The notes under the pieces were generated by a model that saw only the letters and a list, made by a program, of their open reading frames with translations, was not told where the DNA came from and made no database searches. Shown here piece after piece: positions 652 to 4,814 of a stretch of 4,814 nucleotides of DNA. Numbering within the stretch: the stretch's first letter is position 1; each line of letters starts with the position of its first letter. Origin of the DNA: a virus (Duplodnaviria; Heunggongvirae; Uroviricota; Caudoviricetes); IMG/VR virus record IMGVR_UViG_2778261560_000010; one strand, written 5' to 3'. Both the position numbers and the translations under genes were made by a program.

Positions 652-2709
652 ATGAATATTATGACGTCCAAATGGGTTCAACTATCATCAATGCCCGGAA
701 ACTTTACCGTTAAAGTTTCCGGTGGTACAGCGGCATTTCTTGAGGCTCCCTTTCCTCCGGCTGAAACGAAAGGAGGAATGACATTTGCTGACTGTCTCAT
801 CAGTTTTAATACACGGGATTGCCTGTGGGTAAGGCCAGTATCCGGTGATCCGAACGTGGAAATTACCGGAGCGGGTATTGGTGCTGTCATTCCGTTAAGT
901 GCTGATGTTGCCGGTACTACTGAACCGTCAGACTGGGATAATGCTGAAACACATACCCGTCCGGCAGGAAATGAAACGGCTTCCAGCTCCCCTTCCTGGT
1001 ATTACGTGATTGTTATAGCCGGTCAGTCCAATGCTTCATCTTATGGTGAAGGGTTGCCCCTGCCGGATTCTTATGATCGTCCTGATCCACGTATTATGCA
1101 GCTGGCACGCAGGAATACACAAACCCCCGGAGGTATTCCCTGCAAATACAATGAAATCATTCCAGCAGATCACTGCCTTCATGATGTTCAGAATATGAGT
1201 CTGCTGAACCATCCAAAAGCAGACCTGAAAAAAGGGCAGTATGGTTGTGTGGGTCAGGGACTTCATATTGCGAAAAAAGTATTACCGGTGATTCCTGCTG
1301 ATGCCGGGATTTTACTGGTTCCCTGTGCCCGTGGCGGCTCTGCTTTTACAACCGGCGCAGTTGGCTCATTCGATCCGGCAAGTGGTGCAGCCGAGGCGTC
1401 ACTACGCTGGGGAGTGGATACCCCACTGTATCAGGATCTTGTCAGTCGAACGAAAGCGGCACTTGAGGCGAATCCAAAGAATGTGCTGTTATCTGTCGTA
1501 TGGATTCAGGGGGAAGGAGACCTTAAAGCGACCCCGGCCCAGCATGGTGCCCAGTTTACTGCGATGGTGAAAAAATTCCGTGCGGATCTTGGTGCTTTCT
1601 CCGGTCAGTGTATTGGTGGTTCATCAGACAGTGTGCCGTGGTTATGTGGTGACACAACCTATGACTGGAAAGAGAAGAACCCGGCGGCATATGAAACCAT
1701 TTATAGCGGATATAAAAACCGGGCTTCCGAGAACATTCACTTTGTTCCACTGATGCACGATGAGTTCGGTAATAAAACCGCGACCAACCTGCCGGAGCAC
1801 GACCCGGATATCGCTTCTGCCGGGTATTATGGTGCGGAATCACGGGGAGATGGCAACTGGACAACAGCATCCAGGGCAACCCATTTTAGCTCCTGGGCGC
1901 GCCGTTTTCTGGTCTCAGATCGTTTTGCATCAGCAATTCTTAAATATGCAGGTCTGACCTCTGCATTTATTGCCGGTGTGGCCCCTGATGGTGAAGCTCT
2001 GCCTCAGCCCGCGCCGGGTGGAAAACCGGAAGCGCCGACAGGTAGTCAGCCAGGAAGCAGTGAGTCCCCCCAGCCGACATCCCCGTCACTCCGTACGCTG
2101 CTTTCACTTAAAGCATCAGCAGGAGAAGCCCCGGCTCAGGGATGGAAAATTACAGATGGTACAATCCAGCTGACGGACGAAGGTAAAGCGCTGACCGTAT
2201 CCAAACAAAGCGGAAAAACCTGGTCACTTACCCATGCGACCAGTGCTGCCGGAGAACTGTTGCAGCATGGTGGTCAGTTGACCTGTAAATTCCGTCTGTC
2301 AGGTGAAGTAAAAGAAGGCCAGTTTGCTCTGGGTATTTACCTCCACACCGATACGGTCCCGGAAGGTGTAACCATGAGTGGTACAGGCACACCGTTCCTG
2401 ATGGCGTATTATCTCCAGACAACAGGCGGCCAGTTAAATCTGATGCACCATAAAACAGGGGGGAATACGAAACTGGGATCATTTGGAGCCTACAATAACC
2501 AGTGGCATACACTTGTCCTGAAGTTTACTGCGGGAAGTGCCCAGGTAACGCCTGTGCTGGATGGCACTCCGGGCCAGGCATTCCAGATGGTGAAAGATGC
2601 ACTTTCCCCTGCCAAAGATACGCTGACACTGACAGATGTCACCAAAGGGGCAACTTATGGCGTGTCTTTTGAGAGCGTTGTCCTTGAGGTTAATACCCCT
2701 GCGGCATAA
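652..2709 (+). CDS. Multidomain carbohydrate esterase: N-terminal ~115-aa domain, central SGNH/sialate-O-acetylesterase-like domain, Pro-rich linker, C-terminal lectin/LamG-like beta-sandwich domain; NanS-p-like prophage cargo protein
   Basis: Long 685-aa ORF with an AGGA Shine-Dalgarno at 643-646, 5 nt before the ATG at 652 (alternative in-frame ATG at 661). SGNH block I VIVIAGQSNASSYGEG, putative nucleophile Ser126 at codon 1027-1029. Further SGNH-like blocks PCARGGSAF and VVWIQGEGD. Low-complexity Pro/Ser linker PQPAPGGKPEAPTGSQPGSSESPQPTSPS around 1990-2090. The C-terminal ~200 aa is rich in beta-strand-type residues (NQWHTLVLKF). Assignment is motif-based only. Confidence 0.75.
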   Translation: MNIMTSKWVQLSSMPGNFTVKVSGGTAAFLEAPFPPAETKGGMTFADCLISFNTRDCLWVRPVSGDPNVEITGAGIGAVIPLSADVAGTTEPSDWDNAETHTRPAGNETASSSPSWYYVIVIAGQSNASSYGEGLPLPDSYDRPDPRIMQLARRNTQTPGGIPCKYNEIIPADHCLHDVQNMSLLNHPKADLKKGQYGCVGQGLHIAKKVLPVIPADAGILLVPCARGGSAFTTGAVGSFDPASGAAEASLRWGVDTPLYQDLVSRTKAALEANPKNVLLSVVWIQGEGDLKATPAQHGAQFTAMVKKFRADLGAFSGQCIGGSSDSVPWLCGDTTYDWKEKNPAAYETIYSGYKNRASENIHFVPLMHDEFGNKTATNLPEHDPDIASAGYYGAESRGDGNWTTASRATHFSSWARRFLVSDRFASAILKYAGLTSAFIAGVAPDGEALPQPAPGGKPEAPTGSQPGSSESPQPTSPSLRTLLSLKASAGEAPAQGWKITDGTIQLTDEGKALTVSKQSGKTWSLTHATSAAGELLQHGGQLTCKFRLSGEVKEGQFALGIYLHTDTVPEGVTMSGTGTPFLMAYYLQTTGGQLNLMHHKTGGNTKLGSFGAYNNQWHTLVLKFTAGSAQVTPVLDGTPGQAFQMVKDALSPAKDTLTLTDVTKGATYGVSFESVVLEVNTPAA

Positions 2710-2766
2710 TCGTGACGGCCGGGAATTTATCCGGCTGTAACATCAGTTAATAAGAGTGAGGCTTAT

Positions 2767-2946
2767 ATGACATATATAAACGTCTGCCTGCTGTATTTCT
2801 GCACGGTGGTTTGTTGTCTGTTGCTTGTCAGCGGTGGTTATAAAATTATTCGCAATTATTTTCGAAATAAAATTGATGCAGCTGCCGAGGAAAAGATAAA
2901 AAGCGGTGCTGTAATGCCGCAGCCGAAAGACTCCGGTCAGATTTAA
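2767..2946 (+). CDS. Small hydrophobic (single-pass membrane?) protein, 59 aa, unknown function; absent from the supplied ORF track
   Basis: ATG at 2767 preceded by GTGAGG (2756-2761) with a 5-nt spacer; TAA at 2944-2946. My translation: MTYINVCLLYFCTVVCCLLLVSGGYKIIRNYFRNKIDAAAEEKIKSGAVMPQPKDSGQI, i.e. an N-terminal hydrophobic Cys-rich helix followed by a charged tail. Sits 57 nt after the esterase stop and 35 nt before the next ORF, on the same strand. Confidence 0.4.
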   Translation: MTYINVCLLYFCTVVCCLLLVSGGYKIIRNYFRNKIDAAAEEKIKSGAVMPQPKDSGQI

Positions 2947-2981
2947 TTTTTTGTGAACCAGAAAAGGAAAGGAGAATATTC

Positions 2982-3227
2982 ATGCCAGAGATTAAAGGCA
3001 CGGTTACTGAAGAGCTTGTCAAACAGGCACTTTATTCTGAAGAAGTGAACCGCGTGCTGAAGGCGCAGGTTCGCAAGGATTTTGAGGCACAAATCGACGC
3101 ATATGTTGATGAAGTGCTGGCCCGAATGGTTGGTCGTTCTCCGGCTGAAAACAGCACGGAAAATGAGCCTCAACCCGTAGAGCAACCAGAGCCGGTTCAG
3201 CCCGGAACTGACGGTACTATGATGTAA
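2982..3227 (+). CDS. Hypothetical small acidic protein, 81 aa (helical N-terminal half, Pro/Glu-rich tail)
   Basis: Strong RBS AAGGAAAGGAGA (GGAG at 2971-2974) 7 nt before the ATG at 2982. Protein-like composition. Followed by a GC-rich hairpin at 3237-3256. The antisense ORF 2943..3314 looks like low-complexity junk by comparison. Confidence 0.55.
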   Translation: MPEIKGTVTEELVKQALYSEEVNRVLKAQVRKDFEAQIDAYVDEVLARMVGRSPAENSTENEPQPVEQPEPVQPGTDGTMM

Positions 3228-3236
3228 CAATACCGA

Positions 3237-3267
3237 CCGGCAGGTTTCCCTGCCGGGTGAATTTGTT
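3237..3267. terminator. Candidate bidirectional intrinsic terminator between convergent small ORFs
   Basis: Perfect 8-bp GC-rich inverted repeat CCGGCAGG (3237-3244), loop TTTC, CCTGCCGG (3249-3256), followed on the + strand by GTGAATTTGTT. Lies between the stop of the + strand ORF (3227) and the stop of the minus-strand ORF (3266). The U-tract is imperfect. Confidence 0.35.
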
Positions 3268-3436
3268 AATGCACGTTTTGTGTATTTTCCCTCCGGGGAG
3301 AACAGGCAGGACATATCAGCATCCTGAAACAGGAAGCATTTTTTGGTTTGTATGTCTTGCCATTTTGAGATCGAGAACGGCGATAGATGAGCTGTAAGGG
3401 AGTCTTACAGGCAGGGCAAACAGGCTCTTTATCCAT
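3266..3436 (-). CDS. Putative small zinc-ribbon protein, 56 aa (two CPAC motifs), unknown function
   Basis: Minus-strand ORF; I place the start at the ATG at 3434-3436 because it has a perfect AAGGAG Shine-Dalgarno 9 nt upstream on the minus strand (revcomp of 3446-3451). The track's 64-aa version begins at an upstream ATG (3460) lacking an SD. Translation MDKEPVCPACKTPLQLIYRRSRSQNGKTYKPKNASCFRMLICPACSPRRENTQNVH contains CxxC...CxxC. Stop at 3266-3268. Confidence 0.35.
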   Translation of the reverse strand: MDKEPVCPACKTPLQLIYRRSRSQNGKTYKPKNASCFRMLICPACSPRRENTQNVH

Positions 3437-3512
3437 GATAAAGATCTCCTTTTTATGCATCTCTGCTTTACAGGAGACCGGGGAATATCATAGGATACGC
3501 CACGAGCTCAGA

Positions 3513-3672
3513 GTGAAGCATTGATGCTGTTTTTTACAGATTGACCCAGAATAGTTCGCGCTATCTGAGTCGCCATTTATGTAGTCCCGAAGTAAAGCAT
3601 TGATGCAAACTTGTCTAAATCGGCCCAGCATAGTTCCAGCTATGCTGGGTCTCCCTTTTATGTAGTATCCTG
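3513..3672. repeat. Two tandem imperfect direct repeats of ~79-81 bp (roughly 70% identical by eye)
   Basis: Unit A 3513-3591 and unit B 3592-3672 share GT(G/A)AAGCATTGATGC, a CCCAG.ATAGTTC..GCTAT core and TTTATGTAGT. Unit B carries a perfect 10-bp inverted repeat CCCAGCATAG (3624-3633), loop TTCCAG, CTATGCTGGG (3640-3649), followed by TCTCCCTTTTAT; the unit A copy is degenerate. Both units contain the small dyad GCAT-TG-ATGC. Confidence 0.55.
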
Positions 3673-3699
3673 TTGATTTGAAACATACTACATATACGC

Positions 3700-3922
3700 G
3701 CGATCCTACCTTCACTGGATAAAAAGTCAATAAAATGATCATTTTATGATCGTTTTCACCACCTAAGTCTTCGTTTTCTTTAAGTAAATAATCACCGCCC
3801 TGAATCATTGTTGATGACTTTTAAATCTATTTGTTGTATCAATTAAACAAATCGAATCGATCGTTTTTGTCGATCGATTGCATGAAAAAGGCATCAACAA
3901 CAAAGCAGGAGGTTATGCGGCC
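3700..3922 (+). promoter_or_regulatory. com-mom upstream regulatory region with clustered Dam (GATC) sites; candidate methylation-sensitive promoter region
   Basis: Five GATC sites in ~180 bp, at 3702, 3737, 3748, 3859 and 3872, against roughly ten in the 2-kb esterase gene. Two lie in direct repeats AATGATCATTTT / TATGATCGTTTT (3734-3756); two lie in a perfect 9-bp inverted repeat AATCGATCG (3855-3863), 7-nt spacer, CGATCGATT (3871-3879). Candidate weak sigma70 hexamers are ATGACT (3814-3819) / 17 bp / TATCAA (3837-3842), or alternatively a -10 like TAAATAAT (3785-3792) with a poor -35. com RBS CAGGAGG at 3906-3912. Confidence 0.5.
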
Positions 3923-4123
3923 ATGTATCGAAACATACGGTGCCGACACTGCAATAAGCTACTGGCACGGGCCAGTTTCAGTTATCTGGAAGTAAAATGT
4001 CCGCGCTGTAAAACCCTCAATCAAATCACATCTCCGAGCGCCACAGAGCACCCCACATACACAAGGAAATCCTGTCGTGGGGAACAAAAAGCAAGTTACA
4101 TCCCGTATCATCAGCACGCCTGA
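3923..4123 (+). CDS. com: Com-like zinc-finger translational activator of mom
   Basis: 66-aa ORF from the ATG at 3923, with CAGGAGG 10 nt upstream. [31 protein letters not shown] has the C-x2-C-x15-C-x2-C spacing and resembles Mu Com as I recall it (MKSIRCKNCNKLL...IRCPRCK). The track's 81-aa version starts at a TTG at 3878 inside the GATC palindrome, which I consider an artefact. Overlaps the next ORF by 47 nt. Confidence 0.8.
4051..4082 (+). promoter_or_regulatory. Candidate mRNA stem-loop sequestering the mom Shine-Dalgarno and GTG start (putative target of Com-dependent translational activation)
   Basis: CCCCAC (4051-4056) is the exact reverse complement of GTGGGG (4077-4082), which contains the mom GTG start. 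The 20-nt intervening sequence carries the SD-like AAGGAAA (4063-4069). Consistent with the known Mu mechanism in which Com binding unmasks the mom translation start. Confidence 0.4.
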
Positions 4124-4814
4124 ACTTATTCGCTATAACGACAATATCGTTGGTTATGGCTCCCGTGAGTTACGGGTTGAGACAATAAGTTGCTGGCTGG
4201 CCCGACTGGTCATCGTCAATAAACATTACAGCCACCGTTTCGTAAATAATTCATACCTTCATCTGGGCATATTTTCAGAACGGGAACTTGTTGGCGTAAT
4301 GCAATGGGGTTACGCCCTTAACCCAAACAGTGGTGCACGCGTCGTAACGGGTACGCAGAACCGAGAATATATGGAGCTGAACCGGCTATGGCTGCATGAC
4401 TGTATGCCGAGAAACTCCGAATCAAGGGCGATCAGTTACGCGCTCAAGCTAATCAGGCAGCTTTATCCGCAGGTGCAGTGGGTTCAGTCGTTTGCAGATG
4501 AGCGTTGTGGCTGTCTTGGTGTCGTGTATCAGGCAAGCAATTTTGATTATGTAGGCAGCCATGAATCAACATTCTATGAACTTGATGGCGAGTGGTATCA
4601 CGAGATTTGCAGGAATGCCATTAAACGAGGCGGACAACGAGGTGAACATCTGAGGGCTAATATCGACAGAGCCAGTGTGCATAAGTTCCAACAGTTTCGT
4701 TACATCCGGTTTCTGAACAAGAGGGCCAGAAAACGCCTCAACACAAAGCTATTCAAAGTCCAGCCTTACCCAAAACCACAAACAGTTAAAACTGGTTTGA
4801 AAGAGAGTGAATGA
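4077..4814 (+). CDS. mom: Mom-like DNA modification protein (adenine N6-acetamido/carbamoylmethyl modification enzyme of Mu-like phages)
   Basis: 245-aa [34 protein letters not shown]..., resembling Mu Mom as I recall it. Start is a GTG at 4077, the first possible start after the in-frame stop at 3993-3995, with AAGGAAA 7 nt upstream. Begins inside the 3' end of com, as in Mu. TGA stop at 4812-4814, the last bases of the window. Confidence 0.85.

Follow-up and report, generated by a model that had tools for sequence, protein, structure and literature searches.

The DNA considered here (the window, 4,814 nucleotides (nt) of IMG/VR virus record IMGVR_UViG_2778261560_000010) derives, according to its Pfam-based gene layout, from a Mu-like prophage of the E. 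coli type, of which it represents the right end. On its minus strand it contains a small open reading frame (ORF), situated between a convergent DUF826 gene and the divergent com gene. An original prediction, made from the sequence, had proposed for this ORF a zinc-ribbon mini-protein of 56 amino acids (aa) with a Shine-Dalgarno (SD) motif AAGGAG, two CPAC motifs, and a hairpin terminator shared with the plus-strand gene. The ORF, the SD motif, and both CPAC motifs are present as they had been read. Taken from its first ATG, the minus-strand ORF (3266..3460) comprises 64 aa; the ATG that is preceded by the SD motif (3436) gives 56 aa. The central elements are the following:

3266-3436, minus strand: coding sequence (CDS) of a 56-aa basic four-Cys zinc-ribbon protein (ATG 3436..3434, stop 3268..3266)
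3451..3446, minus strand: SD motif AAGGAG, 9 nt upstream of the ATG at 3436
3237-3256: GC-rich 8-bp hairpin (CCGGCAGG-TTTC-CCTGCCGG), candidate bidirectional terminator

The 56-codon frame and its product

The protein (MDKEPVCPACKTPLQLIYRRSRSQNGKTYKPKNASCFRMLICPACSPRRENTQNVH) possesses two CPAC knuckles (Cys7/Cys10, residues 7-10, and Cys42/Cys45, residues 42-45) as well as an additional cysteine, Cys36, and has a pI of 9.8 with 11 K+R versus 3 D+E. In its AF2 model (pLDDT 79), four short beta strands are found between the knuckles (15-19, 22-24, 27-29, 37-41). The combination of CxxC pairs and a ribosome-binding site had been held unlikely to occur by chance, and this is borne out by 300 shuffles of the window, in which ORFs of 40-120 aa with CxxC-x10-40-CxxC appeared at a rate of 0.01 per window, none of them with an SD motif too.

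An exhaustive phmmer search (HMMER) of 1.84 billion representative proteins retrieved only near-identical E. coli entries and a single distant homologue, P0036 (MDKEARLCPSCHEQMTPIFRGSFTRKGKTYRPKKAASFPIWLCPKCSPAEESH; 53 aa, 47% identity, E 2.7e-7), which originates from Salmonella enterica and has 59 member sequences. The MDKE start, both CPxC pairs, GKTYxPK, and LCPxCSP are kept in P0036, and the extra Cys36 is replaced by Ser. Its gene stands alone, shows the same AAGGAG - 9 nt - ATG arrangement as the window, and is situated in Mu-like prophages at a distance of 390 nt from com and divergent from it; the examined alleles of E. coli and Salmonella all agree in motif and 9-nt spacing. At 8 nt past the double stop (TAA TAA) of the P0036 gene begins a canonical terminator, a 9-bp stem with TTTTTCT behind it, at the position that matches the window hairpin. 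Two knuckles, an intervening strand-forming sequence, and cysteines conserved in the homologue agree with the generic zinc-ribbon fold class. Copies other than those of the E. coli type and the Salmonella type were not found in two one-genome-per-species scans, one metagenome scan, and four viral scans; cultured phages and plasmids likewise yielded nothing new, and among cultured phages there was no DNA or protein match beyond a Mu-like element inserted in two Stx phages.

Concerning the substitutions among alleles, the 56-codon frame differs clearly from the alternatives. Unique substitutions among the E. coli alleles are 7 synonymous and 4 non-synonymous in this frame (a metagenome contig adds 1 further non-synonymous change), as against 2-3 and 8-9, respectively, in each of the five remaining frames; the binomial probability of so few non-synonymous changes is P = 0.0037. 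The Salmonella branch exhibits 9 synonymous and 7 non-synonymous substitutions in frame versus 1/15 and 4/12 out of frame. With both branches combined, 16 synonymous changes stand beside 12 non-synonymous ones, compared with 1-5 synonymous in other frames (P about 2e-5). Identity between E. coli and Salmonella at the three codon positions amounts to 0.62/0.73/0.40. The frame-specific substitution bias and the stand-alone homologue lead us to conclude that the 56-codon frame is the selected coding unit, evolving under purifying selection, and that the longer ORFs of this region are presumably artefacts of an open leader. The claim of a genuine zinc-ribbon mini-gene, as opposed to random antisense sequence, is thus upheld both by its conserved position in related prophages and by the coding-type pattern of its changes. 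Lack of conservation in related elements, which the original prediction had named as a refuting outcome, was looked for and did not materialise.

Comparison with known families was less productive. Profile searches, which had been suggested for the 56-aa sequence, brought no family match above threshold: What Pfam, NCBIfam, PHROGs, and PADLOC yielded was limited to zinc-knuckle matches below threshold, and neither these nor structure searches including BFVD provided a significant family or fold match. Trm112p-like (PF03966) stayed below the gathering threshold (16.8 bits versus a cut-off of 22, E 0.0067), and Zn_ribbon_TFIIB (PF13453) reached 12.7 bits with the 56-aa protein and 21.2 bits, versus a cut-off of 22 and on the first knuckle only, with P0036. 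No PADLOC-DB model was matched by either protein. The Pfam matches at E <= 1 include neither Zn_ribbon_Com (PF10122) nor Lar or any other anti-restriction family. Structural matches of the 56-aa protein were all non-significant, the weak ones in BFVD including proteins labelled restriction alleviation only at E above 2. A paralogous relationship to Com was considered and rejected, as hhalign gave a probability of 16% over a single 9-residue knuckle (9 columns) and a Pfam match was lacking. By its CPxC...CPxC arrangement the product is predicted to bind zinc, and its net charge of about +8 would be compatible with binding to nucleic acid.

Predicted promoter, leader, and hairpins

The region upstream of the ORF contains the following elements:

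3730..3703, minus strand: sigma-70-like promoter TTGACT-16 nt-TAGGAT directed toward the zinc-ribbon gene, predicted
3659-3694, minus strand: hairpin at the 5' end of the leader with a 16-nt loop (TATGTAGTAT / ATACTACATA)
3512-3675: two tandem units at a spacing of ~79 nt, representing different alleles, each with one strong hairpin (3543-3571; 3622-3651)
3426-3478, minus strand: translation-initiation region, predicted to be closed (-16.9 kcal/mol, z -2.7)

The predicted promoter is situated ~190 nt from the com ATG. In the Salmonella locus L017, TTGACT-16-TAAGAT is found at the same position and spacing as in the window; in L035 the upstream DNA is unrelated, yet TTGACG-16-TATAAT occurs at the equivalent spot, just before a conserved ATATGTAGT. 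Over the whole region, promoter-like sites are not in excess (2 versus 2.3 in shuffles). The leader thus delimited is about 260 nt long in the window versus about 180 nt in single-unit relatives, and of the hairpin at its 5' end a 7-bp core is kept in Salmonella.

The window carries 79 nt more than its E. coli relatives, which usually possess a single unit (~80 nt). The unit hairpin, present also in L017 (5870-5895), folds in all nine alleles (-10 to -23 kcal/mol), the stems differing by compensatory changes. In plus-strand orientation, TCTCCCTTTTAT comes after the hairpin, which was scored as terminator-like there and could thus protect com-mom against read-through; G-U pairs and folding energy, taken as indicators of the active strand, gave inconsistent results between alleles. 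One of the two tandem copies resembles the UTAK-15 type and the other the Stx2c-Mu type. Being different alleles, the two copies suggest an origin by unequal recombination between two Mu-like prophages. Units have been doubled independently in the Salmonella-type contigs L030 and L032.

Within the initiation region, the SD motif is part of a predicted 7-bp stem (3472-3478 pairing with 3444-3450), and the AUG is placed in a loop of 3 nt that is closed by a perfect 8-bp stem (3426-3433 / 3437-3444, 100% complementary). Rfam 15 gave no match at E <= 1 in 2900-4100. An action of Com on this leader through an RNA motif common with the mom start region was rejected, since nothing beyond 8-mers is shared.

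Between the two convergent genes, the GC-rich hairpin at 3237-3256 folds with -17.8 kcal/mol in minus-strand RNA and -17.1 kcal/mol in plus-strand RNA (z about -3.7). The original prediction had described it correctly, including its position 3' of the plus-strand ORF, except for the distance of 10 nt to the end of the zinc-ribbon ORF, which is in fact 9 nt, equal to its distance from the DUF826 stop (3225-3227). Both stops are located within a 20-nt imperfect palindrome that extends the hairpin. Of the proposed shared terminator, the hairpin itself and its symmetric position between the stops are real, whereas a convincing U-tract is present on neither strand, the tails being GTGAATTTGTTA (plus) and TCGGTATTGTTA (minus). 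A function as shared bidirectional terminator is plausible from this arrangement. Its interpretation as a mobile or repeated element was rejected, other exact occurrences lying in unrelated contexts.

Genomic context and association with com

The further genes of the window, assigned by Pfam, are:

1-561: Gin-type serine invertase (gin)
652-2709, plus strand: 685-aa SASA/DUF6645 esterase
2767-2946, plus strand: DUF1378 gene
2982-3227, plus strand: DUF826 gene (PF05696, 3.1e-15; stop 3225-3227), convergent neighbour of the zinc-ribbon ORF
3923-4123, plus strand: com (Zn_ribbon_Com, 3.3e-12), divergent neighbour of the zinc-ribbon ORF
4077-4814: mom (Mom, 3.9e-77), following com

Prophages of many Shiga-toxin-producing E. 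coli share 97.7% identity with the window from 2700 to 3950, a part that also matches the Mu-like element carried inside two Stx phages. In phage Mu, the closest reference phage, from which the zinc-ribbon locus is absent, only 94 nt separate the gin stop from the com start; window positions 562 to ~3800 therefore constitute accessory DNA. The esterase/DUF1378/DUF826 cassette is typical of Stx/lambdoid phages (nanS-p-like), and the genes between gin and com (SASA + DUF6645 esterase, DUF1378, and DUF826; 652-3227) are accordingly a cargo module common to unrelated phage types. A related 754-aa esterase is directly convergent to the zinc-ribbon gene in L036. On plasmid pO177A1 (L006 452-1146), IS1 is inserted between DUF1378 and DUF826, the zinc-ribbon ORF contains an A-run frameshift, and the whole region is decaying.

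The zinc-ribbon gene is found divergent from com in four genome arrangements, among which its downstream neighbour varies: com-mom with DUF826 downstream (window); com-dcm or com-mom with three small ORFs downstream (L017/L018); a convergent 130-aa ORF downstream (L035); and a 60-aa ORF between com and the zinc-ribbon gene together with a convergent esterase downstream (L036). Its constant partner is the modification cassette led by com, along with a common spacer containing a GATC cluster. Identity between the two branches amounts to 47% for the zinc-ribbon protein versus about 70% for Com.

Several observations concern the cassette itself. In three loci (L005 2273-3253; L017 4398-5450; L036 1-1149), com is followed by a DNA cytosine methyltransferase in place of mom, which indicates that the Com-controlled slot accepts different DNA-modification enzymes. 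The com-mom control region of the window (3799-3922) is unlike the one in Mu, in that its GATC cluster (3855-3879), which forms a perfect 9-nt inverted repeat, precedes the com ATG by only ~45-65 nt versus ~95-130 nt in Mu. This cluster is enclosed by the two halves of another inverted repeat (3799-3822 / 3886-3909; 24 nt, 79% complementary). In L017 (6362-7274), the Salmonella zinc-ribbon gene is followed downstream by three same-strand ORFs (100, 81, and 122 aa) that belong to no Pfam family; the 122-aa product shows a weak PADLOC match to PD-T4-7 (E 0.0025). For the 81-aa protein, the C-terminal part has a homologue upstream of the zinc-ribbon gene in L036, so that modules have evidently been shuffled.

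Interpretation and alternative explanations

Taken together, the locus is best understood as a genuine small gene with a transcript of its own, carried by a Mu-like prophage as a moron-like unit that encodes a basic four-Cys zinc-ribbon regulator tied to the com-mom/dcm cassette; we put the probability of this interpretation at roughly 70%. The unit would be transcribed from its own sigma-70-type promoter (3730-3703). Leader hairpins that bury the SD motif and place the AUG in a 3-nt loop would hold translation down. The protein would then act as a nucleic-acid-binding regulator, linked either to the DNA-modification cassette next to its gene or to lysogenic conversion, and the hairpin at 3237-3256 would stop both convergent transcripts. 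For the regulatory role, the protein's size, its charge, and the linkage of its gene to com are the arguments.

Several points weigh against this interpretation. No match to a family, a fold, or a defence system supplies a function, and the regulator role is derived from charge, size, and linkage only. The family is tiny and confined to Mu-like prophages of E. coli and Salmonella, which makes for a small evolutionary sample with alleles possibly linked by descent. The stems enclosing the SD motif and the AUG lack covariation support, because the sequence of the initiation region is nearly invariant between the branches. The terminator scan, which demands 5 T in 8, did not call the hairpin at 3237-3256 on either strand, its U-tract being weak and both tails falling below this value. 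Furthermore, a derived additional G directly after ATGGAT (ATGGATGAAAGAG), termed +G in the following, is found in 139 of 202 complete-genome E. coli records (counted as matches to that allele over a 253-254-nt region around the ORF); it is absent from the Salmonella branch and from 61 E. coli records. +G shifts the SD-proximal ATG out of frame and alters the AUG hairpin, although the frame is still accessible from a second ATG (13-nt spacer). In addition, one lineage exhibits Cys7Tyr, two alleles (pO177A1 and one Salmonella contig) an A-run frameshift, and one allele (L038) is a 5'-truncated remnant. From these latter alleles it follows that the gene is dispensable in some prophages.

Such decay leads to the first alternative, namely that the gene was functional ancestrally and is now a dispensable remnant in E. 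coli prophages, the intact copy of the window having no current role. Besides the alleles just listed, the degraded state of many host prophages themselves, e.g., by IS1 insertion, speaks for this. However, the synonymous bias persists within E. coli alone (7 versus 4-5), the +G allele retains an in-frame ATG with only synonymous changes in the remaining ORF, and SD motif, promoter, and hairpin are all kept; we therefore consider a functionless remnant unlikely.

Similarly doubtful is a role not as regulator but as an effector in phage-host or phage-phage conflict, e.g., in Lar-like restriction alleviation or in superinfection exclusion, in which case the gene would be a lysogenic-conversion moron active in the prophage. 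Such a role would agree with the moron-like architecture, the variable cargo of the neighbourhood, the adjoining anti-restriction DNA-modification cassette, the divergence that is faster than that of Com, and the weak BFVD matches named above. Against it stand the searches already described, which yielded neither an anti-restriction Pfam match, nor a PADLOC match, nor a significant structural one.

A further alternative arises from public annotation, which the original prediction had missed along with +G and the Mu-like com-mom context. It concerns the following feature:

3488-3808, minus strand: 106-aa ORF, called the N-terminal part of a longer protein by PGAP and PHROGs and judged here to be non-coding leader and regulatory DNA

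In most genomes PGAP treats 3266-3808 (minus strand) as a "frameshifted" pseudogene, and elsewhere as an intact 154-aa CDS (WP_115801860.1, in O26 RM10386), whose last 55 residues are the zinc ribbon. Accordingly, the zinc ribbon could be the C-terminal domain of this 154-aa protein, which overlaps phrog_26524, and the window copy could be a frameshifted pseudogene broken by the 79-nt duplication. The intact CDS, the match of the 106-aa ORF to phrog_26524 (5.4e-35), the 205 member sequences of the fused product P0008 (154 aa), and the predominance of the +G allele around the ORF (with the in-frame status of the upstream ORF checked in L003 only) are in favour of such a fusion. It hinges, however, on the single derived +G, which creates the 154-aa product of leader ORF and zinc ribbon in one allele background (L003 1539-2003). 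As PGAP takes this fused WP_115801860.1 as reference, alleles of the ancestral type are called "frameshifted".

Moreover, the predicted long products use the zinc-ribbon DNA in different frames between alleles: P0013 (135 aa), the commonest long product and the commonest member of phrog_26524, reads it in another frame, P0005 (153 aa) switches frame midway, and P0008 is fused to it in frame. One continuous frame conserved across alleles and relatives, as expected of a 154-aa protein or of phrog_26524, was not found. The upstream part shows 5 synonymous and 9 non-synonymous changes, like other frames, and two frame-breaking indel events in 141 nt; the conserved promoter is located within it as well, as are hairpins in which compensatory changes would alter the hypothetical peptide. 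Salmonella has no equivalent of the 106-aa ORF, and its gene begins at the same MDKE with the same SD motif. On the grounds of frame switching, missing synonymous bias, indels, and absence from Salmonella, the 106-aa ORF was rejected as a real gene, and an origin of the zinc ribbon as part of a longer protein is improbable.

Finally, it is hardly credible that the ORF is open by chance, within a spacer rich in regulatory signals or terminators whose only conserved elements are RNA or DNA signals: The surrounding DNA is indeed dense in conserved hairpins, and the small ORF is predicted by very few gene callers and represented by 3-5 database proteins only, but the coding-type substitutions are specific to the 56-codon frame, the four Cys and other motifs are kept at 47% protein identity with a third codon position just 40% identical, the start of the ORF, the SD motif, and the stop-proximal hairpin are conserved, and no shuffle gave a CxxC...CxxC ORF with an SD motif.

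Significance

The recognition of the small gene corrects an annotation: About 200 complete genomes of E. coli list the region as a 154-aa hypothetical protein or as a frameshifted pseudogene. PHROG family phrog_26524 was most likely built on leader DNA, and the selected product is the zinc-ribbon protein of about 6.5 kDa. Zinc-ribbon proteins of this small size are under-annotated in prophages, and verified cases aid small-protein discovery. The find itself is modest, i.e., a narrow family of an uncharacterised small phage zinc-ribbon protein in a moron-like unit.

As a model for gene silencing in several layers (Dam/OxyR, C, Fis, Com, momP2), the mom control region is a classic, and the zinc-ribbon gene is a candidate extra player beside it. 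We know of no function attributed to divergent transcription at this control region. The protein might even constitute an unrecognised third component of the com-mom/com-dcm cassette, that is, a nucleic-acid-binding regulator co-inherited with com in at least four arrangements, with a momP2-like divergent promoter and leader-gated translation. This more specific idea is a long shot; if true, the control of a toxic modification enzyme, which is known to have multiple layers, would gain a further one.

Comparison with known systems

The annotated protein WP_115801860.1 and family phrog_26524 cover the same DNA as the zinc-ribbon ORF, but they extend ~100 aa further upstream, over DNA that lacks conservation as coding sequence.

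Among small four-Cys phage proteins, the Ogr/Delta-type zinc fingers of P2 and P4 are transcription activators of a similar size class. The zinc-ribbon protein differs from them in having no Pfam, NCBIfam, or PHROG match, and the position and orientation of its gene are unlike those of a late-gene activator.

Com of phage Mu is a zinc-ribbon translational activator of mom, whose translation start is occluded by an RNA hairpin (PMC3378877). Equally to Com, the protein described here is small and basic with a four-Cys zinc ribbon, is encoded in the same regulatory neighbourhood, and belongs to a gene beside an RNA hairpin that occludes a translation start, the latter being a prediction for the zinc-ribbon gene. 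There are also differences: The two proteins exhibit no sequence relationship, the knuckles are spaced by 31 residues in the zinc-ribbon protein versus about 15 in Com, and the zinc-ribbon leader and the mom translation-initiation region have no motif in common.

A leftward promoter is also known from Mu, where momP2, divergent from Pmom and overlapping it, competes with Pmom for RNA polymerase in the absence of C (PMC3378877). The promoter-like site of the window resembles momP2 in facing leftward, away from com-mom, within the mom regulatory region, whereas its distance of ~190 nt from the com ATG and the conserved protein-coding gene to which it leads make it a more distant analogue. To our knowledge, no gene product has been attributed to momP2 in Mu.

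Concerning its overall organization, the zinc-ribbon unit is comparable to the morons, reportedly defined for lambdoid phages by Juhala, Hendrix and colleagues as independent promoter-ORF-terminator units between phage operons. It differs in that the window hairpin lacks a clear U-tract and in its long structured leader, which appears to close its own ribosome-binding site and is not a defining property of morons. With these it shares a small ORF, a predicted sigma-70-like promoter, a hairpin past the stop, an orientation opposite to the flanking phage genes, and its location in DNA that is absent from the type phage Mu.

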